Source of the DNA: Anaerolineales bacterium
GTDB taxonomy: Bacteria; Chloroflexota; Anaerolineae; Anaerolineales; E44-bin32
Reading direction: 5' to 3'
Length of the DNA stretch: 64,000 nt
Assembly (NCBI GenBank): GCA_034417075.1
Contig: DAOULU010000037.1
Coordinates: 41,915 to 105,914 of the forward strand
How positions within the stretch are numbered: the first letter of the stretch is position 1; each line of letters begins with the position of its first letter. Below are positions 7,588-61,113 of this stretch, piece by piece. The translations under genes were made by a program, and so were the position numbers. The notes beneath the pieces were generated by a model, which had not been told where the DNA came from, searched no databases, and saw only the letters and a list, made by a program, of their open reading frames with translations.

Positions 7588-7588
7588 T

Positions 7589-12048: not shown

Positions 12049-12129
12049 CGGCCGGATGACTACTCCGGCCTGGTCGTTCGCCGCCTGGGTCGATAAAATC
12101 AGGGCAGTTGAGGTTAAGGATCGCAGAAC

Positions 12130-25915: not shown

Positions 25916-27661
<1,746 letters not shown>

Positions 27662-29686: not shown

Positions 29687-29846
29687 ATCGTTGATACGAA
29701 ACTTTCCGTCCAGTATAAGTGGACGAATAGGTTGTGATCTTCATTGAATACTGGTAAGACCTGGATAAGCGATAATTTATCTACTCGAAGATAATGTCAT
29801 GGATAACGAGTAAATGAAAAATCTTTACTGAAACAGTCCCCAACCT

Positions 29847-29865
29847 AATTGTGAACGCCACAATT
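29847..29865. repeat. Palindrome AATTGTG-N5-CACAATT (candidate operator)
   Basis: Perfect 7-bp inverted repeat in the rfbA-wzm intergenic region. Confidence 0.4.
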
Positions 29866-30068
29866 GTTTAAAAAAATACGAAAAGGGCGTTTCCAAGTAC
29901 GGGACCGCAATGTGTGATATATACGGAGTGACAGACCCTCTTGTGGAAGATGCAATTAATTTAAATATCGGGCCTATTCATTACTTCACTGACTACGTTT
30001 TCGATGGTACTACAATATTCGATTTTAATTATTCACTTGGAAACTCACAGCATAAAATAGGTGCTTAG

Positions 30069-30938
30069 ATGAAAGGTATGTTATTCAAGAAATCCCCAGA
30101 ATCTGTAAAAGCGGATTATCTCTCAAATCCGATATATGATTCTGATTCTGCGGAAAATCGGATTTTACATGAAATCCGTGAGTTAATACGTTATCGGAAT
30201 CTTGTGGTTCAAATGGTCAAACGGGATATAACATCCCGATATAAGAGATCCTTCCTTGGTGTTGCTTGGACCTTGTTGGATCCCTTATTGACAATGCTCA
30301 TAATGGCTATTGTTTATGATGCCCTATTCAAAAGGTCGATAGAGGATTTCCCGGTTTTTTTGCTTTGCGGATTAATTGTATGGAATTATTACTCACAATC
30401 CAGTTCTCAGGCGATGAGTTCACTTATGTATCAAGGCTCACTCCTGGGACGTGTCTATTTTCCTAAGTCCGTGTTTGGTATCACTGCTGTGGGTACAGGG
30501 TTAGTTAATCTCCTCTTATCGTTGATACCGCTAGCAATATTTGTTGTTCTGTACGGCCGTCCAATTACGGCCGCGCTGGCATTTATACCTCTGGCGCTTC
30601 TCATTATTACTGCCTTCACATTAGGAGTGGGACTGCTAGTCTCATTACTGGGAGTCTATTTTGGCGATATGGTGAATATTTACAGCTTTATACTTAGATT
30701 AACCATGTTTCTTTCAGGAACTTTTTATTACATCGATTCTCTACCAGAGCGGCTCCACAAAATGATCTACCTGTTGCCGACGTATCATATGATACGGATA
30801 TTCCGTGATCCAGTGTATGAAGGCGTTTTTCCGCAATGGGATTCGATTATTTACGCAGCAACGTCGGCTTTGGTAATTTTGATAATCGGATTATGGATTT
30901 TCACTAAATTCGCCGATGGGATCGCATACAGAATTTAA
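30069..30938 (+). CDS. wzm: Polysaccharide ABC transporter permease
   Basis: RYKRSFLGVAWTLLDP, GSLLGRVYFP, about six TM helices. Confidence 0.9.
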   Translation: MKGMLFKKSPESVKADYLSNPIYDSDSAENRILHEIRELIRYRNLVVQMVKRDITSRYKRSFLGVAWTLLDPLLTMLIMAIVYDALFKRSIEDFPVFLLCGLIVWNYYSQSSSQAMSSLMYQGSLLGRVYFPKSVFGITAVGTGLVNLLLSLIPLAIFVVLYGRPITAALAFIPLALLIITAFTLGVGLLVSLLGVYFGDMVNIYSFILRLTMFLSGTFYYIDSLPERLHKMIYLLPTYHMIRIFRDPVYEGVFPQWDSIIYAATSALVILIIGLWIFTKFADGIAYRI

Positions 30939-30939
30939 T

Positions 30940-31716
30940 ATGGACGTGTTGAATTCCACACAAGGCAATAGCAATCATCCGGTAATCCTCACCGATAAAG
31001 TATCGGTGTATTATCGACTGCAACACAATAGCCCAACATCTGCGAAAGAATTTGTTATTCGGTTGATCCGGGGTGATCTAAATTCAAGCACAGTAAAAGC
31101 GCTGGATGGCGTTTCACTTCATGTTGATCAGGGTGAAATGATTGGGGTTATTGGCCGAAATGGAGCAGGTAAAAGCACACTTTTGAAAGTGATTTCGGCG
31201 ATAGTAAAACCAACAACAGGTCGGGTACGTGTTTGGGGACGTGTAACGTCATTACTCGGAGTAGGTGCTGGATTTAATAGTGAACTCACTGGTCGTGAGA
31301 ACGTGTTTTTATATTCGTCACTATTGGGTCACTCGCAACAAGAGGCGACCAGGTTAATGCCCTCGATCATTGAGTTCGCAGAACTTTCAAAATTCATTGA
31401 CGCACCCCTGCGAACATATTCGTCTGGCATGATTACGCGATTGGGATTTGCTGTGGCAATGGCCCGCCAACCTGAAATTCTACTGATAGACGAAGTCCTA
31501 GGTGTTGGAGATGAATTGTTTAAATCGAAGTGCCGAGAGCGATTTCATGCTTACCGTTCTCGAGGGACTACGGTCATTCTTGTTTCACACAGCCTGCGTG
31601 AGATCGAAACTATCTGCCAAAGAGCTTTATGGCTTCATGAAGGTAAGCTGATGCGAATAGGTGAGACGAAAGAGGTTGCCGGCCATTATCGAAGATTTTT
31701 AGAGGGATCCCCTTGA
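30940..31716 (+). CDS. wzt: Polysaccharide ABC transporter ATP-binding subunit, no C-terminal carbohydrate-binding domain
   Basis: GRNGAGKST, LTGRENV, YSSGMITRLGF, LLIDEVLGVGD, VSH. Ends just after the NBD. Confidence 0.9.
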   Translation: MDVLNSTQGNSNHPVILTDKVSVYYRLQHNSPTSAKEFVIRLIRGDLNSSTVKALDGVSLHVDQGEMIGVIGRNGAGKSTLLKVISAIVKPTTGRVRVWGRVTSLLGVGAGFNSELTGRENVFLYSSLLGHSQQEATRLMPSIIEFAELSKFIDAPLRTYSSGMITRLGFAVAMARQPEILLIDEVLGVGDELFKSKCRERFHAYRSRGTTVILVSHSLREIETICQRALWLHEGKLMRIGETKEVAGHYRRFLEGSP

Positions 31717-31875
31717 TAGATACGTCTTACCCCCACAACTATAGTATCTGACACCATCGTTATAAATCCTATCTACTCTTCAAACATACATGATTTTTCA
31801 GGTAAGTGAGGATTTACTTGGAATGTGTACATAAAGCAACTTGTGATGAAGTTGTAGAAAGCCGTTTCACGATCT

Positions 31876-32853
31876 TCAATTGAGGTTGTCTATTTTTTCC
31901 ATGTCGGCAATTGTCATGATCTGAATCAATTCCTCGAAGTTAACTTGTGGTGACCAGCCCAATTCATTATGTGCTTTCGTTGCATCCCCTCGCAGTTCGA
32001 TCTTTTCCGATGGGCGGTAGAATCTATCGTCGATGGCTACATGATCTTCCCAATTTAATCCAGCAATGGCAAATGATTGTGTGACCAATTCGCGGACGGA
32101 GTGTGTTTTACCAGTAGCAAGAACGTAATCATCTGGTTTATCTTGCTGCAGCATCAACCACATTGCATGCACATACTCCGGTGCGTATCCCCAATCCCGC
32201 CGAGCGTCAAGATTCCCCAGCTGGAGTGTTTCCATCAACCCAGCCTTAATTCTTGCAACTGAACTGGTAACTTTTCGAGTGACGTATTCAAAGCCACGCC
32301 GCTCAGATTCGTGGTTGAACATTATTCCTGAGCAGGCGAAGACACCCGATTCCTCCCTGTAATTTCGGGTTAAATGAAAGCCGACCAGTTTTGATATCCC
32401 GTATGGTGATCGTGGGTTAAGCGCGGTGCCCTCGTTCTGAGGGACAACTCTGGGTCTGCCGAACATTTCGCTAGATGCAGCGAAAAAGAAACGACACTCA
32501 GGTGCTCTTTCCTTTATTGTCGAGAGTATGATTTGTGCGCTGGTAATATTGTTGTGAATGGTCGTGAATTCATGATCGAATGAATAGGATACAAAACTCT
32601 GCGCGGCTAGATGGTAGCATTCAGTAGGTTTAACCTGGTCCACAACATGGAAGATATTGGCGAAATTTTCAATGGACGCCGTATGCAATTGGATGTGTTC
32701 GAGTACAGGTTGGATTCTCCATAGGTGGTGTGCTGGATCTTCCAATGCAACACGGCGAATTATTCCGTGCACCTCGTACCCTTTCGATAAAAGGAGTTCG
32801 GTTAAGTAGGATCCGTCCTGACCAGCTATGCCTGTTATCAACGCTTTCTTCAT
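31876..32853 (-). CDS. gmd: GDP-mannose 4,6-dehydratase
   Basis: KALITGIAGQDGSYL, HLAAQSFV, ASSEMFG, PRSPYGISK, FNHESERRG, LGNLDARRDWG. Confidence 0.95.
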   Translation of the reverse strand: MKKALITGIAGQDGSYLTELLLSKGYEVHGIIRRVALEDPAHHLWRIQPVLEHIQLHTASIENFANIFHVVDQVKPTECYHLAAQSFVSYSFDHEFTTIHNNITSAQIILSTIKERAPECRFFFAASSEMFGRPRVVPQNEGTALNPRSPYGISKLVGFHLTRNYREESGVFACSGIMFNHESERRGFEYVTRKVTSSVARIKAGLMETLQLGNLDARRDWGYAPEYVHAMWLMLQQDKPDDYVLATGKTHSVRELVTQSFAIAGLNWEDHVAIDDRFYRPSEKIELRGDATKAHNELGWSPQVNFEELIQIMTIADMEKIDNLN

Positions 32854-32972
32854 GTCCACGTTCCATTATTGATATTGATGTAGGGGTTGGGTCTACATTA
32901 TCCTGTTTTGGGTCAGTTAGGGATGAAACGTATTTTTCTTTCTCACTTGATCTCCTCTAAAACCAACAGGAA

Positions 32973-33434
32973 TTAGATAATTAAGTAATAAATAAGATCA
33001 TCTACGTCTTCATCTGGTTCATTTCGAACAAAACCCATACTTTCGTATAAGTGCTTGGCAATGGTATTCCTTGGGTTTACTTTTAACATCATTTTAATCG
33101 CCCCACGATATCTACAAATGGATTTTGATATCTCAATTGAGCATTTACCTAACCCCAAGCCTCGATGTGTCTCCGAAATTACAACGCCGTAAGCTGGGAC
33201 ATTAAATCCCTCATCCCACCCTCGCAGCATGAAGAAACCGACAAGTTCGTCTTCCAGGAAGAATCCTTGAAACACATCCTTTTGACGATTCTGAAGAATT
33301 GATACGATGGAGTTTTCTGTAAATTCGAAGGGCGTGAAATATTGAAGGTACTCGGGAGATTGTGATTGAAGCATCGACGAGAGCGCCGCGGCGTCTTCCG
33401 ATTTCAACGGCCGCATACTGAGCGCACTGTTCAT
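32973..33434 (-). CDS. GNAT N-acyltransferase
   Basis: HRGLGLG acyl-CoA motif, NTIAKHLYESMGF. TAATG overlap with the aminotransferase. Confidence 0.8.
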   Translation of the reverse strand: MNSALSMRPLKSEDAAALSSMLQSQSPEYLQYFTPFEFTENSIVSILQNRQKDVFQGFFLEDELVGFFMLRGWDEGFNVPAYGVVISETHRGLGLGKCSIEISKSICRYRGAIKMMLKVNPRNTIAKHLYESMGFVRNEPDEDVDDLIYYLII

Positions 33435-34567
33435 TATCGGCGGTCATTTCTCGGATTAGGATCCGATTGTAGACAGTTGATTATCGTTTCGCATACGTAA
33501 CCAATGTCATCATTCGATAGTGTCGCTGCTGAGGGTAGATTGATGCCCCGAGCTGCAACATCCGTGGCGATTGGGAATTGCGCATTTTTTTCTGCCCCTT
33601 GTTCGTACGGAGGAAGCTTGTGCATGGGGTGAAAAAAAGGTCGGGTTTCAATTCCTTTCGACGCGAGTTGAACCATTACTTCATCTCGATCAATGCCTGA
33701 AGGTAGGCACACTGAATAAAGCCAATATACGTTTTTTGCCCAAGGTTCTTCATGAGGAAGCAGCAAGCCGCTGCCTTGGAGGCAATTAACATAGGCATTG
33801 GCGATCTCGCGCCTGCGCATGACAAACCAGTCCAGTCGTTCGAGTTGGGCCAATCCAATAGCGGCTTGTAGATTGGTAATTCGATAGTTGTAGCCAATGA
33901 CGGGAAACCAGTAGCGCTGATGCGGATCCATCCCCTGACCACGAAGGAGGCGAATCTTAGCTGCGAGTTCCCCGGAATTGGTTGTGATCATACCACCTTC
34001 GCCAGTCGTTATGATCTTGTTGCCATAAAAACTAAAGGTGGCCGCGTCGCTTACGTTACCAACGCGTTTCCCGAAACATTCGGCGCCGTGAGCTTCTGCG
34101 GCGTCTTCAAGGAGGGATAAGCCATGATCCTTGGCCAGTTTACAAAGCGTTTCCATTTCTGCAGGGTGGCCATACAAATGAACCGCAATAATAGCTTTGG
34201 TACTGTTCGTAATGCGCGCGGAAACATCTTGAGGGTCGACAGTCCATGTTTTAGGATTGATATCGGCAAACACTGGTTTGGCACCTGTGTAGGTAACAGC
34301 ATTTGCTGTGGCCACATAGGTGAGATCGGGAACGATCACTTCGTCTCCCGGGCCAATACCAAATCCAAGAAGTGCGACATGAAGTGCAGCGGTCCCACTG
34401 CTGACTGCAATTGCGTGTCCGGTTCCACAATACCTGGCAAACTCTTCTTCGAAAAGATCAATGTACTTGCCACTGCCAGATATCCAGTTCGAATCGAGAC
34501 AGTCGAGGAGATATTTTTTTTCGTTCCCGTCAAGTAGCGGTTCGGCTAGAGGAATCTTGAATGTCAT
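33434..34567 (-). CDS. per: DegT/DnrJ/EryC1/StrS aminotransferase, GDP-perosamine synthase-like
   Basis: AVHLYG, EDAAEAHG, SFYGNKIITTGEGGM, IGYNYRITNLQAAIGLAQLE. Clustered with gmd. Confidence 0.85.
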   Translation of the reverse strand: MTFKIPLAEPLLDGNEKKYLLDCLDSNWISGSGKYIDLFEEEFARYCGTGHAIAVSSGTAALHVALLGFGIGPGDEVIVPDLTYVATANAVTYTGAKPVFADINPKTWTVDPQDVSARITNSTKAIIAVHLYGHPAEMETLCKLAKDHGLSLLEDAAEAHGAECFGKRVGNVSDAATFSFYGNKIITTGEGGMITTNSGELAAKIRLLRGQGMDPHQRYWFPVIGYNYRITNLQAAIGLAQLERLDWFVMRRREIANAYVNCLQGSGLLLPHEEPWAKNVYWLYSVCLPSGIDRDEVMVQLASKGIETRPFFHPMHKLPPYEQGAEKNAQFPIATDVAARGINLPSAATLSNDDIGYVCETIINCLQSDPNPRNDRR

Positions 34568-34674
34568 GAAATAATTTTTCTGTTGATTGTCAACTGCACT
34601 AATGCCGTTTGGATTGATTCAGTACAACAGTTTACGACACTGGGTATTGAATCGGCAAGTAAAGAGATGATTGG

Positions 34675-35928
34675 TCACTTTAGAACGGAATTAAACACAC
34701 TAACATATTTCTTTGCAACGTCGTCCCAAGTAGGGCGAACGTCGTGCATTGCTCGAAGTGCTGAGTCCTTGTAGGTTGGATAATTCTCAAGCATGTCGTG
34801 CAACGCGAGCAAGATCGAATCGATAGACAACGGATCGAACCATGCAATTTTTGCGCTTCGATCTGCAAGGTGTTCTCGAAGCACCGGGATATCTGCACAA
34901 AGAACGGGTATACCGAGACTTAATGCTTCTTCTACGGGATAACTTCCACCCCCCTCTGCCAATGTTGGCATGATCAGCGCGGTTGCATTTTTCAACAAGG
35001 AGACGGCTACGACGTCTTCGACGTATCCGAGAGCAAAATAATCATTCCCGTGGTGGAGTCCAATTCGTTTCACCAAACCCACGAGACGATCCTGCTGTGT
35101 TTCGATGTTCGCCTCGAGCGGCCAATCATCGCGGAGAATATGTATCCCTTCCCCGATGAAGACGAGAGGGATTTCCTGACGGCGTTCGAATTGAGCCCAA
35201 GCGGTTAAAAGCGTGTAATGATTCTTGTGGGCGGTGATGTTCCCTGGAAAGAGAATATAGCGTTCGGGAATATCTTTGGGGAACGCGTCAGATAGTTCGT
35301 CATCCGAATGGGGTTTGAGAGTAGAGATGGCGTGATGGATTACGATCGTGGATTCGCAGAAATCTCCAAAGTGCTTGATGAGCAGGTTCTTAGTTGCCTC
35401 GGATGATACGATCACGCGATCAGCGTTCCGAAGCCATGTGTTCGCACGATGCCATTCCTTGTTCGTGTTCGCGCCACCGAGTAGTTCAGGGAATTCAAAG
35501 TAAGTTGCATCCTGGAAGGTGCAAACGATGGGCTTGTTCAAGGCTGAATACTTCAGCAGGTGGGGCCAAAATACGTATACGATATCGACATCCTTTGCTA
35601 AACGTCGTATTTGTTCGCTGTAAACTCGATCGAGGATTTTCGGTTCGATTCGCCAGCGAAGTGACAATTTGAGCCGCTGACTTCCTTTTATGCCAAAAAT
35701 AGACGTGTTCTTTCTCAGCCAGGATTGTACGAAATTTGGTTTGAGCTCAATGATCTCTATCGATGAATTGCTCCCGGCATTCAGATCGTGCAGGCTGAAG
35801 AAATCTGGGGGGACGGCTAGTTTCAGTGATCTAACATCGGAGAGCTGAGCGATTGCGGGTACAAGCCGAGAAAGTAAACCATAACCCCCTCCGAGATTGA
35901 TAAATGGGGACCATACGAGGATTCTCAT
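34675..35928 (-). CDS. GT4 glycosyltransferase
   Basis: TFQDATY, FPGNITAHKNH, PTLAEGGGSYPVEEA, GIPVLCADIP. Confidence 0.85.
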   Translation of the reverse strand: MRILVWSPFINLGGGYGLLSRLVPAIAQLSDVRSLKLAVPPDFFSLHDLNAGSNSSIEIIELKPNFVQSWLRKNTSIFGIKGSQRLKLSLRWRIEPKILDRVYSEQIRRLAKDVDIVYVFWPHLLKYSALNKPIVCTFQDATYFEFPELLGGANTNKEWHRANTWLRNADRVIVSSEATKNLLIKHFGDFCESTIVIHHAISTLKPHSDDELSDAFPKDIPERYILFPGNITAHKNHYTLLTAWAQFERRQEIPLVFIGEGIHILRDDWPLEANIETQQDRLVGLVKRIGLHHGNDYFALGYVEDVVAVSLLKNATALIMPTLAEGGGSYPVEEALSLGIPVLCADIPVLREHLADRSAKIAWFDPLSIDSILLALHDMLENYPTYKDSALRAMHDVRPTWDDVAKKYVSVFNSVLK

Positions 35929-36121
35929 AAAATCTGAACCATCATACTTATTTTATACATTGAATTTTTGGCACATTTATATCGATGCGCAGACATAGCT
36001 TAGGGATAATGCTTCCGTTCTAGCAAGGGTATTATAATTTAAGTATGCATCCACACAGTTGAACAAGTTTATCCGGCATGGATATCGATTTTTATTATAA
36101 AGCTCCTGTATAAATTACAAT

Positions 36122-37450
36122 TCATTCTACGTCAATGAGTTTGGCTATCTCATCTACAATAAATTCAACCAATTCCGGTGAAATAATATCTGCTCTTAGG
36201 TCAAATAACTGTTTGGCCATAGAGTCAACCAGATCGAGGACCGGCTTGTTGTATCTTGTCACTTCAATAAAGTCAATAATCTTTTCGCAGTATTCCGAAG
36301 TCTTAAAAGCGTTCTTGGCGAAACGCAAGCCTCGTCGCCCTAATGTTCGTCGCAACGTTTCGTTTTTACATAATTGCTGGAGAGACTTTTCCAGTTCATT
36401 GCAATCGTTCACTTTCTCAACTACGTTGTCGGGAAATTCGTCATAGTATCCGTGTTTCCATACTATTACTGGTTTTCCAATAAAGAGCGCTTCAAGCAGA
36501 CTCCAGGAACTTTCACCGAAGTGCGGGTTCCGGATATTGATAATGATGTCACTCCGCTGCATTTGCTCGTACAGGATTTCATCGGGCTGATAGCCAAGTA
36601 AATGGACAGACTCCTGGAGTCTATAATTCTCGATCAACGATATTATGCGTTCTACATACGGGGTTCGATGGGAGTAACTTCCAACGATGTTATAGAGAAC
36701 GTTTTCTCGAAGAAATTGATTTCGACCGATTGCATCGACTGTCTCTGCGATCATCTTGTTGGGATTAATCACACCATAGGTAAGTAGGCGGATTTTATTA
36801 TGAGGGCTTACATCTGCTGAAGATGTCGCATTGATATTAATTTGAGAAATGCGTGGTTCGGGGAAATCGATTTGGATGACAGGAACATTTGCGATTTTTA
36901 CAAGAGCGTTTTTTGAATACTTAGAGTGGACAACGATACCATAAGCGCTAAATACAGCCGATTTCGCCATGTGAAATTCCAACATCGTTGGCTTGTCCCA
37001 GACAGGCCCGGCCGTACGATCAAGGATTCGTTGAGCGAGTTGATTTCCCTTTTCTCCATGTGAAAATGTCGCTTCGTTTATATAACCTTTTGCATCGTGT
37101 AGATGATCTAGGTAGTACGAGGCGAAGAAATGATGCATAACCAAGTCATGAAGGATGACGATCCCTGGATTTTTAATGGCGGTTTCATATATGGTTTTAT
37201 GAAAATTGATATTGTCACCAAGATTGTAAATCAGCGAGTCGTATGTTTTCAGCATTTGATCGAGACTGCGTTTTTTCGTCTTTTGTAGGAAACATAATTC
37301 AACATCCGTAAGCCATGCATCTTTATGGCTGATCAAATCCGAAGCGAATACGGTAATTTCATGACTTTTAGTGAGTCTTTCGACAACGCTCGAGCTGCAT
37401 TGACCGATAGCGCTTTTTTTCGAAAAAGGAGTGAACCACGCGATTCTCAT
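36122..37450 (-). CDS. GT4 glycosyltransferase
   Basis: MRIAWFTPF start (ATGA overlap), ILHDLVMHHF, GESSWSLLEALFIGKP. Confidence 0.8.
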   Translation of the reverse strand: MRIAWFTPFSKKSAIGQCSSSVVERLTKSHEITVFASDLISHKDAWLTDVELCFLQKTKKRSLDQMLKTYDSLIYNLGDNINFHKTIYETAIKNPGIVILHDLVMHHFFASYYLDHLHDAKGYINEATFSHGEKGNQLAQRILDRTAGPVWDKPTMLEFHMAKSAVFSAYGIVVHSKYSKNALVKIANVPVIQIDFPEPRISQININATSSADVSPHNKIRLLTYGVINPNKMIAETVDAIGRNQFLRENVLYNIVGSYSHRTPYVERIISLIENYRLQESVHLLGYQPDEILYEQMQRSDIIINIRNPHFGESSWSLLEALFIGKPVIVWKHGYYDEFPDNVVEKVNDCNELEKSLQQLCKNETLRRTLGRRGLRFAKNAFKTSEYCEKIIDFIEVTRYNKPVLDLVDSMAKQLFDLRADIISPELVEFIVDEIAKLIDVE

Positions 37451-38487
37451 TTGATTAAATTCCCGATGACATGGTCCCAATCGACTTTATGTTGGTGAAG
37501 AGATAAATTCGCCGCTTCACCCATTCGTTTCATCATTTTCCGATTGGCCCATAGTCTTTCCATGCTTTCGGCGAGTGCTTGTGCGGAGGGTTCGGTCACA
37601 AGCCCGTTTTCTCCGTCCACAACAAATTCGGTTGGTCCTCCCGAATCGACGAATGTAATCACCGGTTTATTGGCATGAAAAGCTTCTATCGTGACGTAGC
37701 CATAGTCCTCATCGTAAGGAATAAAGACTGCGGCGAAAGCATTTGACATCCATTTAGCTTTTTCTTCTTCTGAGACCCAGCCCAGTAATTCTACCTTGTC
37801 TGATAGATTGTAATGCTGGATTACGTTCTTGAGATGATTTGAATAAGGGCTGTCGTCAATATAACCAGCGATAACCAGTTTGAACTTCGACTTTACGAAA
37901 CGCATAGCCTCAATGGCGATATGCTGGCGTTTTGAAGCAACAAGCCTGCTTGGAAAGAAGAAATAGTCGGAAGAATCACCCGCTTGATAAAGCTCAGGTT
38001 GCAGAAGTGGTGGATACAAGACATCGTTTACCCGAATCTGGTTATAGCGCTCGAGTCTATAAGCGACAGTCTTAGAAATGGTGTAAATCTCACGTGCCTC
38101 GTGAAGATGAATATCGTCGGCACGTTGGATCATGTTGCGAATCCGTTCCCCTTCGGGATTACTGGGCAACTCCTGGTATTGCGTTCCCCATAAATCGTAG
38201 GCTTGTCGGAATTGGTGGAGGAGCCATATTTTCTTGTTGTTGCTAGGAATGACATATGCTGGAAATTTCAATGCGATTACCAGGTCGGGTTCGGCAACAC
38301 GGATATTGAAGAGTCTGTAGGCCAGTAAGTGTTCGAGGATCTTCTGGGAGGGATACCATTTGAAGGGGATTTTCACGACTGTCGATCGATGACCGTATTC
38401 GAGTAGCTTTACGTTAAGCGTATTCGCCAGATACTCTGCACCGCCCTGGACAAAGGGCTCTTGTACATTGAGAATGATGATTCTCAT
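37447..38487 (-). CDS. GT4 glycosyltransferase
   Basis: MRIIILNVQEPFVQGGAE, SRLVASKRQ, YDEDYGYVTIEAF. ATGA overlap. Confidence 0.85.
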   Translation of the reverse strand: MRIIILNVQEPFVQGGAEYLANTLNVKLLEYGHRSTVVKIPFKWYPSQKILEHLLAYRLFNIRVAEPDLVIALKFPAYVIPSNNKKIWLLHQFRQAYDLWGTQYQELPSNPEGERIRNMIQRADDIHLHEAREIYTISKTVAYRLERYNQIRVNDVLYPPLLQPELYQAGDSSDYFFFPSRLVASKRQHIAIEAMRFVKSKFKLVIAGYIDDSPYSNHLKNVIQHYNLSDKVELLGWVSEEEKAKWMSNAFAAVFIPYDEDYGYVTIEAFHANKPVITFVDSGGPTEFVVDGENGLVTEPSAQALAESMERLWANRKMMKRMGEAANLSLHQHKVDWDHVIGNLIK

Positions 38488-39533
38488 CCCAGCAGCCCTT
38501 CGATGACGTGATCCCAATGGATGTTGTGCAGATCTAATGTCTTGAATGCGTTATTACCCAATTCATATATTTGATTTTTATCCACCCACAACTTGTCCAT
38601 TGAGGCGGCCAAAGCTTCTGCAGATGAGTCGCAGACAAAGCCGTTGAAACCGTGTCGAATGATTTCGTTCGTGCCACCAGAGTCCTGAAAAGTGATCACC
38701 GGTTTCTTCGAATGAAAAGCCTCGAGCGTAGAATAGCCATACGAATCTTCATTGTATGGAATGTAGATCGCTGCATAACAATTGGCCGTCAGGGTTGCTT
38801 TCTCTCCTTCCGGAATCCATCCGAGGAGTCTGACTTTGTCATGTAACTCCCATTTGGCGACCATGTTTTCGAGTTCATCTTTGTAGGAATCCAGATCAGG
38901 AGCACCGATAAGCAGTAATTTGAAATTCGATTTCACATATCTCATCGCTTCGATCGCAACGTTTTGTCGCTTAATAGGCGTTAGGCGACTGGCATAGAGA
39001 AAGTAGTTGCCACTTTCACCATTGTAAAAAAGATCAGGGTTGGGATGGGGGGGATAGAGGATACCATCGGCATTAATTGCATTAAATTCTTCCAGCCGTC
39101 CGGCTACAGTTTTTGAGTTGGTAAATATCTTTCGCGCTTCCCTGAGGTACTTTGTGTCGGATTGAATCAGGGCTTGGCGAAATTCTAATCCCTCGGGTGT
39201 GTTTGGTATGTCTTGGAATCGTGTCCCCCACAAATCGTAAGCGCCTCGGTGGTGATGGATAAACCAGGCTACTTTATTCGGATGGGGTAATGCATAGGAT
39301 GGGTATCGAATCGTGATCAGTCTGTCGATGGGGGAGCCGGCAGCCGCACTCAGATCGAGGTTCCGAATGGCCAACGTCTGTGCGGGAAGGTCACGCCAGT
39401 AGGAAGTTAAGGGTATGTAAACCAAGTCGACTTGATGGCCACGACTGGAAAACTGTTTGGCCAAGCTGTCGCATATCATGGTTCCACCCCCCTTGATGAA
39501 GGGGACATGGGTGGTGGCGATGAGTATCCTAAT
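38484..39533 (-). CDS. GT4 glycosyltransferase, tandem paralog of 37447-38487, probable ATT start
   Basis: SRLTPIKRQ, YNEDSYGYSTLEAF. The conserved N-terminus (RILIATTHVPFIKGG) lies upstream of the first ATG at 39479, and GGAGG is 6 nt before ATT 39533. Confidence 0.8.
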   Translation of the reverse strand: MRILIATTHVPFIKGGGTMICDSLAKQFSSRGHQVDLVYIPLTSYWRDLPAQTLAIRNLDLSAAAGSPIDRLITIRYPSYALPHPNKVAWFIHHHRGAYDLWGTRFQDIPNTPEGLEFRQALIQSDTKYLREARKIFTNSKTVAGRLEEFNAINADGILYPPHPNPDLFYNGESGNYFLYASRLTPIKRQNVAIEAMRYVKSNFKLLLIGAPDLDSYKDELENMVAKWELHDKVRLLGWIPEGEKATLTANCYAAIYIPYNEDSYGYSTLEAFHSKKPVITFQDSGGTNEIIRHGFNGFVCDSSAEALAASMDKLWVDKNQIYELGNNAFKTLDLHNIHWDHVIEGLLG

Positions 39534-39580
39534 TTGCAGCCTCCGTCAGGAATTCATACGAGATTATTCGCTTTCCCATA

Positions 39581-40831
39581 TCATGCGGGATGTATCTTTA
39601 TCCACTCGAAAGCAACACCAAGATAACGTAAGCCTTTGTCAACGGATCCAGTTGAGTTTGGTAAGGTGGTTCTATTTACCTGGAATATAAATTTAGTTAG
39701 AAACTTGCCTTTCATTAGTACCTCTTTCGGTATTATGCCATGATAAAGAATTTCACCGTTCACTTCATTACGAATGATATCTATTCGGGATCCATTGGCG
39801 GTTAAGGATAGGCTATCAAGGATGTCTTTCGACATATAGAGCCGTATTTTGAACAAAATCTTAACATCCGAATCCTTATGAAGCGGGAAAAAAAGTGATG
39901 ATTTTGTCCCTGGTCCGGTCCACACCCAACGGTTCTCGTTTACTACTTCTGGCACATGCCATCCGTTTCCAGGAATTGGTTCTTCGAAGTAGTATTCGAT
40001 AGTCCTTTGAGTACCGTGATTTAACTGAGGGTGATTGTTTTCGTAGTTATTTAGTAGAAGTGTATCCATCATTTGTAAATAGCGTTCATCAAATAATTCT
40101 TCCGCATATTGATAAAGTTCGACATCCAGCGAGTTAAGTTCGATAAGATGTTGAACAATAGTATCTGGTAATTCAGTTTGGTTTAATTTTTCTTCCGATA
40201 CATTAACTTTTGGAATCTGAAGTACGGGTAATAAATTAAATGTGAAGGCCAGAAGGTCGAAAGACTCTTTGATTCTTTCAACCAGACCAACAAATGTAAA
40301 GTCAGATAATCGTTTCTTTGCCAAGCCGATATCGACATCGTCTATTAACTCACGAGCATGCTTGATATCTTGTAATGATTTTATTTCTATATCGAATTTT
40401 GATCCGATAAATCGTGTCTGTAAATTCTTAAAATGACCAATGTAATTTGTATCTAGTAACATTTCTGAAATGCTGTTTATTTTGATTCCCCCCCCCTTTT
40501 CAGAATCATTTAAGAGATGCCTCGAAATTTGCTTATACTGAGAGATTGATCTTTCAATAGGTTTTCTCAACATGGTAATAAAGAACGGTTTCTTGGGGAG
40601 CAACTTATTGATTTCATAAAATACATGGCCTGTAAGTACTTTATAACTACTCAAGTTAATCGGCGTTTCAGGTAACTCATACCAACGAAGGACTTCGCTT
40701 ACATGCGAAGAACCATAGTAACCCATTAACAACTTCCGTAACGTCATACCAGCCGTCTTGGGAATGTGAATGAAACAAATTTGGTCATTCTCTATGAGTG
40801 TGTGGTTTATAGAATTCTTGTTCTCATTCAT
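39581..40831 (-). CDS. Sulfotransferase (Sulfotransfer_2-like) with an extra C-terminal domain
   Basis: FIHIPKTAGMT (5'-PSB loop), MLRKPIERSISQY (3'-PB motif), LNSLDVELY. About 130-aa beta-rich C-terminal extension. Confidence 0.8.
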   Translation of the reverse strand: MNENKNSINHTLIENDQICFIHIPKTAGMTLRKLLMGYYGSSHVSEVLRWYELPETPINLSSYKVLTGHVFYEINKLLPKKPFFITMLRKPIERSISQYKQISRHLLNDSEKGGGIKINSISEMLLDTNYIGHFKNLQTRFIGSKFDIEIKSLQDIKHARELIDDVDIGLAKKRLSDFTFVGLVERIKESFDLLAFTFNLLPVLQIPKVNVSEEKLNQTELPDTIVQHLIELNSLDVELYQYAEELFDERYLQMMDTLLLNNYENNHPQLNHGTQRTIEYYFEEPIPGNGWHVPEVVNENRWVWTGPGTKSSLFFPLHKDSDVKILFKIRLYMSKDILDSLSLTANGSRIDIIRNEVNGEILYHGIIPKEVLMKGKFLTKFIFQVNRTTLPNSTGSVDKGLRYLGVAFEWIKIHPA

Positions 40832-40924
40832 GAAGTCCCACCATCATCCCGACACTAGTTTCCTAGGATTTAGTAGACCTGGAGTTAGCAGGATAATCGC
40901 GTGAAATCTTTCGAACAAACCGAT

Positions 40925-42274
40925 TTATCCTTTCGTCCCCATCAAAGCATACGTCTGGTAGTGCAATATCCATTCGCTTTCGCTTATTGGACCTTGAGTG
41001 GGTATCGGATTCTGGTAAAAAGCCTGAATATTGTGAAATCCATGATGCATCATTAGAACGACTAGTAAATCCTTGGGAATCGGCTGATGATGAGATGGGT
41101 CGAGGTAGTACGAGCGGAAATTGTCGAGGCAATAGGTGTTCACACTCTCGAGTAAAATAAAACCATCTTTCATTATTTTGGAATGGGCCAGCTTAATGAA
41201 ATCCAGGAGATACTGAAAAGGAAAATGCTCTATGACCTGAAAAGCGGTAATACCCAGCAGGTCTTCGTCGGGAAGTTTCTGAAGGAATTCGACCGCACCC
41301 GAGTGATGCACCTCGAAGTTTTCCGTTTGAAGTTTTTTAACATGACTTTCATTGGCATCTATCCCGACTGCTTTAATTCCTTGTTTATGAAGAAGTTTCA
41401 GGAACTCTCCCCGTCCGCAGCCGACATCGAGGATGGATTTAACTTCGTTACCGGGTTGCAGTTTTAAAGCATCAAGGTAAAGTGCTTGGCGGCGTGTAAT
41501 GAGTTCATCGGATCCTCGAAATACCTGTTCGATCGCTAGTTCCAATCGATCTGTTTCGTTCGTACTACCAGCTGCCTGATCCAGAAATTCTCTCAGCATT
41601 GCATATTCATGTTCCAGATTGGCCAGGGATACATGAAATTCGGTTTTATAGAACTCTGGCAATTCAACTTGCTTCGTTTGAGTTTGGAACTTGTCACTGA
41701 GGGCTCGGAGTGTTTCATCGTATTCATTCAAACGTGATTTCACTTCAGACAATCCAGCTTCTTGTTGAAAGATGCCTCTTTCCAATATTTTAGCTTGATC
41801 TTCTAGAGCCGACTCCAAAGCGGCATAAGTATTAACGAGTCGTTTCATCTCACCACCGAGGTCTTCCATGTTCTTGAGCGATGATTGACTCTGCATTTGT
41901 AAATCAGCTACCTTATCATCCAACTTCGTTAGGTGATCCCTGAGTTCTTGAATATTCGCTTGTACTGTATTGTGGACTTCATAAGTAGTCGCCAGGTTGT
42001 GCATGGCGATGTCTTGAATTCGGTAAAATCGTTGCGGTAATAAGATACATCGAACGATCCATTTTGTGATTGATCCAACAATGGGGATTCTTTTTACGAA
42101 TTCTTTAAAGGATACGAATGTCTTTAACCGACGAAATTCAACTTGGCTTTGTGGCTTCGTTTCAGTTCGTTCGCTTTCGTTAACCTCAAATAAGCTCAAC
42201 CTGGACAACCGGTCATGGATTCTCCGTTTTATGTGCTCAGATTTGATCTTGTTGTCTGTATCGAGATTGTCCAT
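40925..42274 (-). CDS. Class I SAM methyltransferase with a long N-terminal coiled coil (WbdD-like chain-capping candidate)
   Basis: Heptad-rich helical region over roughly aa 95-240, then LDVGCGRGEF, FQVIEH, YLDPSH. Confidence 0.8.
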   Translation of the reverse strand: MDNLDTDNKIKSEHIKRRIHDRLSRLSLFEVNESERTETKPQSQVEFRRLKTFVSFKEFVKRIPIVGSITKWIVRCILLPQRFYRIQDIAMHNLATTYEVHNTVQANIQELRDHLTKLDDKVADLQMQSQSSLKNMEDLGGEMKRLVNTYAALESALEDQAKILERGIFQQEAGLSEVKSRLNEYDETLRALSDKFQTQTKQVELPEFYKTEFHVSLANLEHEYAMLREFLDQAAGSTNETDRLELAIEQVFRGSDELITRRQALYLDALKLQPGNEVKSILDVGCGRGEFLKLLHKQGIKAVGIDANESHVKKLQTENFEVHHSGAVEFLQKLPDEDLLGITAFQVIEHFPFQYLLDFIKLAHSKIMKDGFILLESVNTYCLDNFRSYYLDPSHHQPIPKDLLVVLMMHHGFHNIQAFYQNPIPTQGPISESEWILHYQTYALMGTKG

Positions 42275-42581
42275 ATTCTTTATATACTCGTATTGTTACG
42301 TACCGTAAAGCTGGTTTTCTTCGATTGTAGCGATATTTATCACGTCGCCAAATCTGGCTCGAATAAACCTGACAGTCGAAGTGGTTGCTTCTTATCAACA
42401 TTTAACTTTGGCTGAACGAGGCGTTCAACTTTAAATGTGTATATTATAGTAGATGCTCAGGATAAACCAAGATTGGGCTAAATCTGTTTATCAAGATTTT
42501 TTCATCGTACGCGTCTCTCAGGTTTCTAAGGGAGGGAAGTTCTTGTTTACAAACGATAATATACTTTTACTGTGATACGTT

Positions 42582-43727
42582 ATGAAAGAAGTCCTTCTAC
42601 TTTCGGGCAATAAGTTGGACGTCGGCGGTGTTGAAGCATACCTGCTTTCTTTGATCCGTCATGGTAATTCGGCAGGTTTTTGCTGGACTGTTGCCGGATG
42701 TTTTTCGAATCGTTTCTCGAATGTCCTCCGGGAACAGGGAACAAAACTACAGAATTGGCGTTCTGGCTTCCCAATTGATATTGGTGCCATTTTATCTTTG
42801 AGAGACGTCCTTGAACAAGCGGAGGTGGAGCTCCTTCATGTTCAAGACCTGCGCAGCAGTATTACTGGTGGCCTCGCGGCACGATCATTGAACATTCCTG
42901 TGGTGCGTACAATCCACATGCCCGAGTTCTACACTTCAGGGTTGGACACCTTGCGCTCTCGTCTGCGGCGCAGGTACTACATTTTGCTCGAAAGACTAAC
43001 CAATCATTGGTTGATGCATCGGGTCATTTTTGTATCCAATCGCATCCTCGATCAGGCAGTCCAACTGCATCTTGCACCATTAGAACGCAGTGAAGTTATT
43101 CCAAATGGGATTGAGCTAACCCATCAAAAACCCGTAAAACCACGCAGCGAAATTCGACAGTCGCTAGATACGCCGGAAAATGCAATTGTGCTTATATACG
43201 TTGGCAGGCTAGAGTTCCAAAAAGGAGTAGATATACTCCTTCATGCACTTTCTGATTTAGCAGCAGAAATCCCACATGAAGTGTGGATCATCGGTGACGG
43301 TTCACTTCGTTCGGAACTGGAATCTTTATCAAAAGATTTACATCTGGAAACCAGAATCCACTTCCTGGGACAACGAGAAGACGTGCCCGATTTGTTGGCA
43401 GCTTCTGATGTCTTTGTCCTACCCTCGCGCTATGAAGGTATGCCAATTGCCTTGTTGGAGGCCATGGGATCTGGCTTACCTTGTATCGTCACGGATGTTG
43501 GAGAGAATGGCGTAATCGTTCGAAGGGCAAATTGTGGATATGTGATTCCGCCTGGAGAAGTCGATAGGCTTTCTGATAAATTGAGGGAGTTAATGAGCTC
43601 TTCGGAGTTGCGGATGGAGATGTCAACTGCCGCTCGATTTGCTGTGAACGAATATACCGATGTCGAGATGGCAGCACGAACATATGCAATCTACAATTCT
43701 ATATTGGCAGTTTCCGGTGTCGGTTAA
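42582..43727 (+). CDS. GT4 glycosyltransferase
   Basis: DVGGVE, IPNGI, VGRLEFQKG, LPSRYEGMPIALLEAM. Confidence 0.9.
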   Translation: MKEVLLLSGNKLDVGGVEAYLLSLIRHGNSAGFCWTVAGCFSNRFSNVLREQGTKLQNWRSGFPIDIGAILSLRDVLEQAEVELLHVQDLRSSITGGLAARSLNIPVVRTIHMPEFYTSGLDTLRSRLRRRYYILLERLTNHWLMHRVIFVSNRILDQAVQLHLAPLERSEVIPNGIELTHQKPVKPRSEIRQSLDTPENAIVLIYVGRLEFQKGVDILLHALSDLAAEIPHEVWIIGDGSLRSELESLSKDLHLETRIHFLGQREDVPDLLAASDVFVLPSRYEGMPIALLEAMGSGLPCIVTDVGENGVIVRRANCGYVIPPGEVDRLSDKLRELMSSSELRMEMSTAARFAVNEYTDVEMAARTYAIYNSILAVSGVG

Positions 43728-43800
43728 TTGGGTTTACCTCGATATTAACGCGGAAAATGAATTTTCATCTCCTCCAGAATGAGTACAATCATTGGATATT

Positions 43801-44937: not shown

Positions 44938-44963
44938 GTTAGGAACGATGATGGCTTGGGATT

Positions 44964-47124: not shown

Positions 47125-47143
47125 TCCGGCGCGCCAAAGGGAT

Positions 47144-61104: not shown

Positions 61105-61113
61105 CGTTCATTC

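Follow-up and report, generated by a model that had tools for sequence, protein, structure and literature searches.

A surface-glycan cluster pairing a ruler-like methyltransferase and a sulfotransferase with a bare ABC exporter in an Anaerolineales bacterium

The locus described here is a surface-glycan cluster that combines a ruler-like methyltransferase, a sulfotransferase and a bare exporter, a variant of textbook chain-length control. It lies in a stretch of 64,000 nt (the window) of contig DAOULU010000037.1 (GCA_034417075.1) from an Anaerolineales bacterium. Our preferred reading, held tentatively and at a little short of even confidence, is that the cluster makes a sulfated surface glycan that contains (N-acyl)perosamine and probably ends in a methyl group, by an ABC-transporter-dependent route in which a WbdD-like ruler would act and export would proceed without cap reading, in a host apparently without LPS or an outer membrane.

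The exporter consists of Wzm, a 289-aa ABC-2 permease (positions 30069..30938, + strand; Pfam ABC2_membrane, E 3e-18; NCBIfam galactan_ABC_perm-like match below cut-off), and Wzt (30916..31716, +). As the preliminary description had it, Wzt ends after its nucleotide-binding domain, matching Pfam ABC_tran alone (NCBIfam TagH/Wzt-like matches are below their cut-offs) and carrying no carbohydrate-binding module (CBM); counted from the first ATG, however, it has 266 aa rather than about 258. Since only 160 bp separate the Wzt stop from the convergent gmd gene, there is no room for a CBM remnant. Profile searches found no Wzt_C (PF14524) in the 64-kb window and no stand-alone Wzt_C in the whole genome; the single genome-wide Wzt_C match is weak (E 5e-6, below cut-off) and lies inside a separate 437-aa Wzt.

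The convergent minus-strand operon begins with a 449-aa methyltransferase (42274-40925), followed by a 416-aa PAPS sulfotransferase (40831-39581) with a beta-rich C-terminal domain; Pfam and AlphaFold2 bear out the preliminary description on this order and on the coiled-coil-like character of the first protein. While the source gene call for the methyltransferase begins at M91 (359 aa, P0070), we favor the 449-aa form because homologues conserve the N terminus, where R18 is invariant. The protein starts with a basic helix (residues 6-26; 42197..42259, −; AlphaFold2) bearing the conserved motif E-x-I-x-R-R-I (alignment A2), which may have a docking or membrane-proximal role. There follow a long, coiled-coil-like spacer (residues 64-196; 41687..42085, −), modeled by AlphaFold2 as a single helix of 133 residues with pLDDT about 77-86 over residues 90-190, and a confidently modeled class I SAM methyltransferase domain (residues 240-449; 40928..41557, −; Pfam Methyltransf_23 at residues 261-417, E 6.1e-16). 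In the model, the coiled-coil-like region therefore precedes the catalytic domain. The helix start (residues 65-86) is amphipathic, with a hydrophobic moment of 0.60 at residues 68-85. The helix region weakly matches SMC and other coiled-coil proteins, and its heptad score exceeds the 95th percentile of shuffles at about residues 100-135 and 155-205, although this home-made, unvalidated score missed probable coiled coils in other proteins; the monomer model and the weak matches together suggest a coiled coil. Within the catalytic domain, the motif D283-G285-C286-G287-R288-G289 is invariant (alignment A2), and the best structural match is 3dli (profile E 7.8e-62; Foldseek E 2.1e-20, TMt 0.82), an uncharacterised archaeal enzyme. 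WbdD was matched neither in the PDB sequence search (E <= 0.01) nor among the Foldseek matches listed. The predicted succession of amphipathic segment, ~133-residue helix and catalytic domain is that of a ruler-type terminator in reversed order, and the protein may have capping and ruler functions.

WbdD of Escherichia coli O9a/O8 and Klebsiella O3/O5 likewise joins a SAM methyltransferase to a long helical spacer with an amphipathic far end, in an ABC-transporter glycan cluster; its helix is of the same order of length as the 133 residues predicted here (about 20 nm if straight). Unlike WbdD, the window's enzyme runs from anchor through helix to methyltransferase, has no kinase domain, and carries a methyltransferase domain not detectably close to that of WbdD; its cognate Wzt lacks a CBM, and its host probably lacks LPS. 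In the preferred mechanism, the 449-aa protein would oligomerise via its ~133-residue helix, and the amphipathic helix start and basic N-terminal helix would form the membrane or polymerase end, leaving the catalytic domain as much as about 20 nm away. The enzyme would methylate only chains grown to that length, whereupon extension would stop; such a ruler would resemble WbdD with its parts in reverse order.

At least 929 relatives belong to this methyltransferase family, on whose members we found no biochemical data in the literature; 15 of 120 among the relatives listed (of 929) carry the JGI name "O-antigen chain-terminating methyltransferase", an automatic label from one source only. The catalytic domain is always C-terminal, behind either GT4 modules or a spacer whose length varies (in 21 homologues, from 141 to 214 aa); WbdD/WbbB have the mirror-image layout. 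The preliminary description presented the coiled coil before the methyltransferase as a reversal of WbdD; the AlphaFold2 model agrees, but the arrangement is not specific to this locus, and judging from the sequences the terminator order is reversed in the family as a whole. Some members place the methyltransferase C-terminal to GT4 modules in 763-1218 aa proteins adjoining Wzm/Wzt, and fusions joined through a spacer lie beside Wzm/Wzt in loci L168, L169, L175, L176, and L100. These fusions recall WbbB of Klebsiella O12 and ORF6 of Klebsiella O7; the available text of PMC11231755 describes terminator, coiled coil, and GT modules in a single polypeptide, and a CBM-like Ig domain on the ORF6-O7 terminator. 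WbbB/ORF6-O7, however, have their terminator at the N terminus and their GTs at the C terminus, the reverse of the relatives studied here; the window's methyltransferase is itself stand-alone, and its operon's CBM-like module sits on the sulfotransferase instead.

Of 17 sampled family loci with a Wzt nearby, 10 carry Wzt_C on that Wzt, a link between the family and capped-glycan systems, and the other 7 have a Wzt without Wzt_C. The variant termination and export logic first proposed for this locus is in keeping with the ruler-like anatomy and the CBM-less Wzt, but a bare Wzt beside this family recurs. Stand-alone members of ≥380 aa near a Wzt were beside a Wzt_C-bearing one in 8 of 8 sampled loci; the window is the exception, and its pairing of methyltransferase and bare Wzt may therefore be incomplete or work differently. 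Also counting against our preferred reading is a published statement, as worded in the part of the source available, that all terminated O-polysaccharide examples studied have a CBM attached to the transporter nucleotide-binding domain.

The sulfotransferase catalytic domain (residues 13-260; 40052..40795, −; Pfam Sulfotransfer_2 at residues 14-243, E 1.5e-9) resembles heparan sulfate 2-O-/6-O-sulfotransferases (3f5f, 5t03), which are polysaccharide O-sulfotransferases, in fold (Z 18-20) and in PAPS-binding stretches. Profile A1 matched 6-O-sulfotransferase 5t03 at E 2.5e-28; VIA-align gave Z 19.6 (5t03) and 18.1 (3f5f); the 5'-PSB-like HIPKTAG and 3'-PB-like MLRKPIERSIS align to 6-OST; and H22, K25, H69, R89, and S97 are invariant in 21 sulfotransferase sequences. 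With this fold and these motifs, the enzyme would O-sulfate the polymer. Unlike the animal enzymes, it is bacterial and cytoplasmic and has an appended jelly roll. A bifunctional ATP sulfurylase/APS kinase of 581 aa (25916..27661, +; Pfam PUA_2, ATP-sulfurylase E 1.9e-82, APS_kinase E 1.2e-65) is the cluster's PAPS synthase and probably the sulfotransferase's donor supply; genome searches found the only APS_kinase match in this gene and the only Sulfotransfer_2 gene also inside this cluster. The C-terminal domain (residues 275-416; 39584..40009, −; AlphaFold2 beta-rich, pLDDT about 90), modeled against CBMs as the preliminary description had suggested, is by that model a jelly roll resembling CBM22/35/6 at Z 8-10: VIA-align gave 2w5f Z 9.9, CBM35 2w46 Z 9.3, and CBM22 4xuo Z 9.2, and Foldseek returned CBM35 and CBM6 matches. 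No Pfam family matched it. In the preferred mechanism, the cluster's PAPS synthase would feed the enzyme, and the jelly roll would hold it on the polymer during O-sulfation.

Export without cap reading would follow from a Wzm/Wzt lacking a CBM, as for the CBM-less Wzt of Klebsiella O1/O2, whose chains, according to the available text of PMC11231755, are exported with or without terminal pyruvate. Like that Wzt, the window's is a nucleotide-binding domain alone beside a possible chain-end modifier; unlike the window, Klebsiella O1/O2 have no coiled-coil terminator and set chain length by export-synthesis coupling. In O1 the terminal pyruvate is not required for export. The window's own bare Wzt also fits an account that we consider unlikely, if still worth weighing, in which methyltransferase and sulfotransferase simply decorate internal repeat residues, the helix only oligomerises or scaffolds, and length follows from synthesis-export coupling. 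Chain length of the Klebsiella O2a type is set by the transporter-to-synthesis ratio, as PMC11231755 describes in its available part; the dedicated PAPS synthase suggests stoichiometric sulfation, as do sulfotransferase paralogues arranged in tandem at the related loci L010, L014, and L015; and the methyltransferase domain has a generic class I fold. Locus L168, a same-order relative, bears on both readings. There, a fragment of the sulfotransferase's jelly-roll domain (interrupted by the contig end), a GT4-methyltransferase fusion, Wzm, and a 268-aa Wzt stand in one row, in favor of the preferred pathway. Its helix, however, spans only about 30 residues from the conserved motif to the methyltransferase; the long ruler is therefore not conserved, which counts against the ruler reading and for decoration. 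What decoration alone accommodates poorly is a long and variable spacer with conserved end motifs on one side and the catalytic domain on the other, together with two hallmarks of terminators in published systems: recurrent fusion of the methyltransferase distal to GT4 modules, and the Wzt_C-bearing transporters beside the family.

The preliminary description also raised sulfate as a terminal cap. This found no support here; the PAPS synthase and the tandem paralogues fit bulk sulfation at least as well. That sulfate and methyl jointly form the terminal group (for example, a methylated/sulfated terminal sugar, compare methyl-phosphate), with export again independent of cap reading, seems improbable to us. 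The two genes open the operon side by side, and in relatives a jelly-roll sulfotransferase is fused to enzymes of known terminal-modifier types, namely a class I methyltransferase (P0005, P0315) or a polysaccharide pyruvyl transferase (P0272). But the methyltransferases of P0005 and P0315 fall outside the window's family (hhalign 12% and 94%, over the SAM-binding core only), no ruler belongs to the sulfotransferase itself, its closest structural relatives sulfate along chains, and our literature searches listed no paper on a sulfotransferase terminator.

Recognition in trans, suggested at the outset to compensate for the missing Wzt CBM, would have the jelly roll bind the finished chain end, sulfated and/or methylated, and pass the chain to Wzm/Wzt. 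The neighborhoods lean that way: of the 21 loci that carry the sulfotransferase-plus-jelly-roll gene, 10 have it immediately next to Wzm/Wzt genes, in 8 of these Wzt lacks a C-terminal extension, and the pairing with a short Wzt spans three Wzt clades (the window with L168, two ammonia-oxidising archaea, and six cyanobacteria). Where the sulfotransferase lacks a jelly roll, a Wzt_C-bearing Wzt is nearby in 5 of 7 loci. Pairing in only 3 of 4 independent clades carries no statistical weight, however, L007 and L015 combine the jelly roll with a Wzt_C-like Wzt, and hhalign detected no homology between the domain and Wzt_C (probability 0.5%). Its 4193 relatives occur on many glycan enzymes in 1-5 copies each, and also on Wzy_C (ligase-like), PMT_2/GT-C-like, radical SAM, kinase, and SH3 proteins, some of which probably place it outside the cytoplasm; with ligase-like and GT-C-like membrane proteins among its carriers, it looks more like a substrate-targeting module than a dedicated cap reader. 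We regard recognition in trans as very doubtful.

That the methyltransferase instead serves the 437-aa Wzt with its Wzt_C-like tail, making its place beside the bare Wzt incidental, is highly improbable: that Wzt is on the same contig and the 8-of-8 pattern would suit it, but it lies 44 kb upstream on the other strand in a different operon, its cluster holds three methyltransferase genes of its own, and in L168 the methyltransferase is immediately upstream of a short Wzt 52% identical to that of the window.

The remaining genes fit a surface-glycan pathway as we would reconstruct it. A polyprenol carrier would be primed by a WbaP-like phosphotransferase, for which the candidate is a polyprenyl-phosphate sugar-phosphate transferase (49686..51119, +; Pfam Bac_transf E 2.1e-60, with CoA_binding_3); in the cyanobacterial loci L009 and L046, too, a Bac_transf-type gene adjoins the Wzm/Wzt/sulfotransferase module. 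Chains would be extended in the cytoplasm by GT4 enzymes, of which four genes (34675-35928, 36122-37480, 37447-38517, and 38484-39479, −; Pfam Glycos_transf_1/Glyco_trans_1_4) lie in the minus-strand group and three (42582-43727, 43792-44937, and 44964-46130, +; Pfam) in a divergent operon (42582..46130). Sugar would come from Gmd, a GDP-mannose 4,6-dehydratase (31876..32859, −; Pfam GDP_Man_Dehyd E 1.1e-112; TIGR01472 gmd E 1.7e-110), a 377-aa GDP-perosamine synthase-like aminotransferase (33434..34567, −; Pfam DegT_DnrJ_EryC1 E 1.3e-128; PDB perosamine synthetase 3bn1/3dr4/3dr7, E about 2e-121), and a 153-aa GNAT N-acetyltransferase (32973..33434, −; Pfam Acetyltransf_1 E 6.9e-11; weak PDB matches only), a candidate perosamine N-acylase because its gene sits between per and gmd. 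An NDP-sugar 4,6-dehydratase-like gene (27705-28814, +; Pfam GDP_Man_Dehyd/Epimerase) and a nucleotidyltransferase gene (28772-29686, +; Pfam NTP_transferase) are further candidates for sugar-nucleotide supply.

A search of the genome, which is 94% complete, detected neither LpxC nor Omp85; an LPS O-antigen is therefore an unlikely product, and the O8/O9a LPS frame of the preliminary description is probably the wrong cell-envelope context. In support of our preferred reading, the gene set here matches that of published S-layer glycan clusters: the window shares a WbaP-like initiator, Wzm/Wzt, GTs, a methyltransferase, and a Wzy_C-domain transferase with the S-layer glycan (slg) cluster of Geobacillus stearothermophilus NRS 2004/3a, a bacterium without LPS whose cluster methyltransferase is proposed as a chain capper; the available text of PMC2943079 describes WsaE with its methyltransferase N-terminal and fused to GTs, unlike the window's, and describes no sulfation. 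Cluster-encoded sulfotransferases acting on a bacterial polysaccharide are found for the cyanobacterial sulfated exopolysaccharide synechan (xss; PMC8205485, available part). The window's module, by contrast, is tied to Wzm/Wzt and is present outside cyanobacteria. Synechan is made by a Wzx/Wzy route. In the Anaerolineales host, apparently devoid of LPS and an outer membrane, export would be followed by transfer of the glycan to an acceptor by a Wzy_C-type enzyme, the candidate ligase or O-oligosaccharyltransferase being a 549-aa membrane protein (47057..48706, +; Pfam Wzy_C E 2.5e-12).

The arrangement noted in the preliminary description, a methyltransferase (MTase) and a sulfotransferase with an additional C-terminal domain facing a Wzt that lacks a carbohydrate-binding module (CBM), was confirmed as a whole. 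The glycan island that holds these genes is very large. On the plus strand, a fused ATP sulfurylase/APS kinase (25916-27661) and two sugar-nucleotide genes (27705-29686), all assigned with Pfam, precede wzm (30069-30938; ABC2_membrane) and wzt (30916-31716; ABC_tran). Convergent to wzt, a minus-strand operon running from 42274 to 31876 encodes, in order, the MTase, the sulfotransferase, four GT4 proteins, an aminotransferase, a GNAT protein, and Gmd; a divergent plus-strand operon encodes three GT4 proteins, a Wzy_C-domain membrane protein, a GT2 protein, a WbaP-like phosphotransferase, and further sugar-nucleotide enzymes (Pfam). The aminotransferase matches solved perosamine synthetases in the PDB (E about 2e-121), so the sugar supplied is GDP-perosamine, probably N-acylated. 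The only APS kinase and the only Sulfotransfer_2 match found by profile searches of the whole genome both fall inside the cluster, which therefore pairs the maker of PAPS with its user. A promoter/terminator scan of 29600-42700 was uninformative (fewer sites than in shuffled sequence). The island also holds five large ORFs (526-642 aa) with no Pfam match at E ≤ 1e-5 (14600-16528, 17739-19499, 21960-23540, 23886-25520, and 2627-4312), and two adjacent FemAB-family genes (59986-62133, minus strand) fit a peptidoglycan with peptide cross-bridges.

The permease and ATPase, whose genes overlap by 23 bp within a glycan cluster, constitute a Wzm/Wzt ABC-2 glycan exporter; the best NCBIfam matches, which were TagH/Wzt-like, fell below the cut-offs. 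The absence of a cap-reading domain from this Wzt, claimed earlier, held up: the 266-aa protein matches ABC_tran only, no Wzt_C (PF14524, the cap-reading CBM that ends other Wzt proteins) was found in the window, and a whole-genome search found no stand-alone copy. Only 160 bp separate the wzt stop from gmd, the convergent gene, so no remnant of CBM coding sequence can lie concealed in between.

Three Wzm/Wzt pairs lie on the contig, with the window's in the middle; a broad ABC_tran search helped point to the third. The upstream pair (L002:16126-18408, 44 kb upstream) includes a Wzt of 437 aa whose tail resembles Wzt_C (E = 1.4e-5, below the cut-off). Next to it come a 571-aa protein carrying a Capsule_synth domain of the KpsC/KpsS type and nonulosonic-acid genes; two NeuB genes with CMP-sugar transferases nearby occupy window positions 6349-12828, where a second Capsule_synth protein is encoded at 8465-10114. 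This cluster looks like a classical CBM-bearing transporter with a terminal sugar of the ulosonic-acid type. In the third pair (L167:9068-15994, about 30 kb past the window end), Wzt has 271 aa and no CBM; downstream are a GT4 gene, a gene for a 1,001-aa protein (N-terminal polysaccharide pyruvyl transferase, C-terminal GT4), another GT4 gene, and a subtilase gene with an SLH domain, possibly a system for a pyruvylated cell-wall polymer in which a terminator is fused to a GT.

Neither LpxC nor Omp85 was found in the genome, which is 94% complete, while control genomes matched as expected; LPS and an outer membrane of the classical type are probably absent from this organism. Given this and the S-layer-like gene set, "O-antigen" is probably the wrong word for the window's glycan. 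S-layer glycan (slg) clusters, as excerpted from PMC2943079, combine a WbaP-like initiator, Wzm/Wzt, GTs, an MTase, and a Wzy_C protein, as the window does, and by this analogy its gene set appears to fit an slg-type ABC-transporter pathway of LPS-less bacteria.

The source annotation calls the MTase as a 359-aa protein starting at M91; the 449-aa reading (40925-42274, minus strand) is better because the 90 residues upstream of M91 are conserved among homologues. In Pfam, Methyltransf_23 covers residues 261-417 (E = 6.1e-16), and no kinase domain is detected in the protein; the SAM motif, D-x-G-C-G-R-G, is invariant across 21 aligned sequences. The AlphaFold2 model (21 homologues as input; mean pLDDT, 74) comprises a helix at residues 6-26, a disordered linker, a single unbroken helix at 64-196 (pLDDT about 77-86 over residues 90-190), a low-confidence linker, and a confident MTase domain at 240-449. 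The view that the coiled coil precedes the MTase, reversing the WbdD order of N-terminal catalytic domain, coiled coil, and C-terminal membrane helix, was thus borne out by both Pfam and AlphaFold2. The helix region gave weak matches to SMC, Beclin-1, and designed coiled coils. A heptad score exceeded the 95th percentile of shuffles at residues about 100-135 and 155-205, but this score is home-made and unvalidated and found little in related multidomain proteins with an evident spacer, so it lends only minor support.

The protein begins with a basic helix conserved among homologues and continues with an amphipathic segment, the long helix, and the MTase domain. Within the N-terminal 137 residues, the most amphipathic stretch is formed by the first turns of the long helix (residues 68-85 have a hydrophobic moment of 0.60 and a mean hydrophobicity of about 0; the amphipathic peak spans 65-86). 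Together with a 19-residue hydropathy maximum of only 1.2, this points to a surface-seeking rather than a transmembrane helix. As modeled, an extended coiled coil would set the catalytic domain apart from the membrane-proximal end.

Within the length band searched, the MTase has 929 relatives at E ≤ 0.001, the best full-length ones having 87-99% coverage and E values of 2.1e-73 to 1e-35. Of the 120 relatives listed, 15 carry the JGI name "O-antigen chain-terminating methyltransferase," which is an automatic label. The 21-sequence alignment conserves an N-terminal motif, a proline-containing motif opening the long helix, a pre-MTase stretch (L-R-G-S...R-Q..Y-L-P), and the SAM motif; invariant columns include R18, R253, G254, and R262. 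Judged by full-length similarity, including the N-terminal motif, the window's protein belongs to this JGI-named family of C-terminal MTases. The spacer between conserved motifs carries many indels and varies from 141 to 214 residues among the 21 sequences. The MTase domain is closest to the uncharacterized archaeal MTase 3dli (profile search, E = 7.8e-62; Foldseek, E = 2.1e-20, TMt 0.82). No WbdD entry occurs among the 45 PDB sequences retrieved by the MTase profile at E ≤ 0.01, in which 3dli ranked first, or among the Foldseek matches listed for the model. Elsewhere the same domain forms the C terminus of 763- to 1,218-aa proteins that have GT4 modules upstream and adjoin Wzm/Wzt. Such fusions mirror WbbB and Klebsiella O7 ORF6, which, according to excerpts of PMC11231755, carry the terminator at the N terminus and the GTs at the C terminus.

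Which type of Wzt accompanies this family varies. A Wzt gene lay within the examined DNA in 9 of 80 metagenome loci carrying the MTase family. Among 401 sampled genomes of the window's phylum, 12, including the window's own and G310, an unpublished genome, had an MTase match at E ≤ 1e-40; 10 neighborhoods from these 12 were examined (G310 excluded), and 8 contained a Wzt gene. ORF lengths in the compared loci were assigned by our own longest-ORF caller, which may overestimate them. Pfam recovered Wzt_C in 17 of 18 long-tailed Wzt proteins (14 above the cut-off), the remaining one, from L175, having a fused class I MTase instead. Counted by locus, Wzt_C is present in 10 of the 17 MTase-family loci with Wzt nearby and absent from 7. 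All eight stand-alone family members of at least 380 aa sit beside a Wzt_C-bearing Wzt (L125, L141, L149, L156, L170, L172, L174, and L177); the seven loci without Wzt_C have either GT4-fused MTases (L100, L168, L175, and L176) or short forms (L123, L124, and L173). The window, with its 449-aa stand-alone MTase and bare Wzt, is the exception in this small sample. L175 and L176 are two genomes of one genus in the window's phylum, in both of which Wzt adjoins a GT4...MTase fusion. The L175 Wzt (L175:11366-13009; 547 aa) has a C-terminal class I MTase domain in place of a CBM, and in its nucleotide-binding domain it shares 83% identity with the 271-aa bare Wzt of L176 (L176:8314-9129).

The nearest analogue is L168, a same-order relative with this gene row: the last part of a sulfotransferase-jelly-roll gene, truncated at the contig end, followed by a 763-aa fusion (GT4, the conserved motif, a short helix, and MTase), Wzm, and a Wzt of 268 aa. 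Compared with the window's proteins, the Wzt is 52% identical, the Wzm 44%, and the MTase domain 38%. Ahead of the L168 MTase the helix has only about 30 residues, which means that a long ruler is not conserved.

The sulfotransferase (39581-40831, minus strand; 416 aa) has two parts. Its catalytic region matches Sulfotransfer_2 (38.8 bits against a Pfam cut-off of 22), and a 21-sequence profile matches heparan sulfate 6-O-sulfotransferase (E = 2.5e-28), whose corresponding stretches align with its HIPKTAG and MLRKPIERSIS. The model superimposes on 5t03 (Z = 19.6, rmsd 3.6 Å over 224 residues) and on 3f5f (Z = 18.1). H22, K25, H69, R89, and S97 are invariant in the 21 sequences; K25, H69, R89, and S97 presumably contribute to 5'-phosphosulfate/3'-phosphate binding, as in other sulfotransferases. 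We assign residues 13-260 as a predicted PAPS-dependent carbohydrate O-sulfotransferase with a heparan sulfate 2-O/6-O-like fold.

Residues 275-416 are beta-rich (AlphaFold2 pLDDT, about 90). Compared with CBMs, as the preliminary description had proposed, this C-domain proved to have a jelly-roll, CBM-like fold (Z = 8.2-9.9): it matches 2w5f residues 34-180 (Z = 9.9, rmsd 2.9 Å, 119 residues), CBM35 2w46 (Z = 9.3), CBM22 4xuo (Z = 9.2), and CBM6, -27, -29, -36, and -4 modules (Z = 8.2-8.8), with 107-126 residues aligned across all CBM matches. Foldseek returned CBM35 and CBM6 (E about 1e-4 to 1e-3). The Z scores are only modestly above the tool's quoted background of 7-8 and so establish fold rather than function. 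At E ≤ 10 the domain still has no match in Pfam, PF14524 included, and no solved Wzt_C is among the structural matches listed for it. No kinship with Wzt_C was detected: when 21 C-domains were compared by hhalign with 14 long-Wzt tails, including that of the genome's own upstream Wzt, the probability was 0.5% (the L175 tail, from a later tail set, turned out to be an MTase, not a CBM).

A profile of ten jelly-roll domains run on 1.84 billion representative proteins retrieved 4,193 proteins at E ≤ 0.001 and 1,457 at E ≤ 1e-10, with one to five copies each. Among the 45 top matches, Pfam assigned sulfotransferase families to 9 (one also with pyruvyl transferase), Wzy_C to 2, radical SAM/SPASM to 2, and PMT_2, GT4, protein kinase, SH3_3, and class I MTase to 1 each; 27 had no family. 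Because many glycan-handling enzymes carry it, the jelly roll is most simply seen as a putative substrate-binding module. In a same-order genome, a jelly roll ends a 631-aa polytopic membrane protein on its own (L084:399-2294); the domain is thus not confined to cytoplasmic sulfotransferases, and its carriers probably occur on both sides of the membrane. Sulfotransferase-MTase fusions were considered as an argument for a functional link and set aside as weak, the fused MTases being generic class I enzymes rather than members of the window's family.

The sulfotransferase profile was used to fetch 79 genome loci, 21 of which have the two-domain form and one more a split form. Wzt lies within the examined DNA in 10 of the 21, and in all 10 the sulfotransferase gene adjoins the wzm-wzt pair. 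The Wzt is bare (245-294 aa) in eight: those of ammonia-oxidizing archaea (L004 and L014) and cyanobacteria (L009, L010, L019, L023, L024, and L046), the cyanobacterial loci sharing the window's Wzy_C protein, WbaP-like transferase, and GT4 companions. The other two, L007 and L015, have weak Wzt_C-like tails. Sulfotransferases without a jelly roll lie near a Wzt_C-bearing Wzt in five loci and near a bare one in two. We rejected treating loci as independent counts, as the eight short-Wzt/jelly-roll loci make up only two clades besides the window's. In a tree of 37 Wzt sequences, bare-Wzt/jelly-roll loci form three clades (window plus L168, archaea, and cyanobacteria) and CBM-bearing ones form one, and a count of three to one carries no statistical weight. 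Three or four tandem sulfotransferase paralogues, some bearing a further C-terminal domain of roughly 150 aa, lie beside Wzm/Wzt in L010 (cyanobacterial), L014 (archaeal), and L015 (uncultured bacterium).

Excerpts of PMC11231755 place terminators at a coiled-coil ruler's distal end and the CBM, in all terminated O-polysaccharide examples, on the transporter's nucleotide-binding domain; a CBM on the terminator is described there only for Klebsiella O7 ORF6, and the CBM-less Klebsiella O1/O2 transporter exports chains with or without terminal pyruvate. The window differs from the systems in these excerpts in joining a ruler-type MTase to a bare Wzt and in carrying its CBM-like module on the sulfotransferase. 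Our literature search found no paper on a chain-terminating methyltransferase; the census of Mann, Kimber, and Whitfield (2019, Glycobiology) may already describe C-terminal terminators and CBM-less capped systems.

We tentatively favor a sulfated, methyl-terminated perosamine surface glycan, with a mirror-image ruler terminator, a CBM-assisted sulfotransferase, and export without cap reading. The MTase and sulfotransferase may instead serve plain internal decoration, which we consider unlikely. The window's MTase shares with WbdD-type terminators a SAM-dependent MTase and a predicted coiled coil, and differs from them in its reversed order and its CBM-less partner Wzt. A combined methyl-plus-sulfate cap seems distinctly improbable; no paper on sulfotransferase terminators was among those listed by the literature search, and the 2019 census may list such variants. 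We are slightly more doubtful that a cap is read in trans by the jelly roll; the sulfotransferase gene adjoins wzm-wzt in all 10 two-domain loci with a Wzt in the examined DNA, and complex prediction for Wzt and the sulfotransferase scored 0.00 ("no answer"), which speaks neither for nor against binding. That the MTase serves the upstream CBM-bearing transporter on the same contig is hardly credible, since the L168 gene row ties the MTase and sulfotransferase to the bare transporter type and not to the genome's CBM-bearing Wzt.

The accepted picture of capped glycans exported by ABC transporters comes from a few enterobacterial O-antigens, with an N-terminal catalytic domain, a coiled-coil ruler, and a CBM-bearing Wzt. 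The wider value of the locus lies in family-level patterns that depart from this picture: a large MTase family of mirror-image build; its presence beside CBM-less transporters in a sizeable minority of loci; and a widespread, unannotated CBM-like module on sulfotransferases genetically tied to bare transporters in three phyla. The Wzm/bare-Wzt/sulfotransferase-jelly-roll module is common to the window's bacterium, cyanobacteria, and ammonia-oxidizing archaea. We give little credence to a bolder proposal, in which the jelly roll would found a new carbohydrate-binding family replacing the transporter CBM, and sulfation, here with ruler-timed methylation, would be an export license read in trans within this conserved module. 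To our knowledge, bacterial and archaeal polysaccharide sulfation has been little studied outside cyanobacteria. If the ruler and capping roles are true, chain length would be controlled by a molecular ruler with no need for cap-gated export; should the jelly roll bind glycan, it would be a candidate for a new CBM family and offer a way into polysaccharide sulfation in bacteria and archaea.
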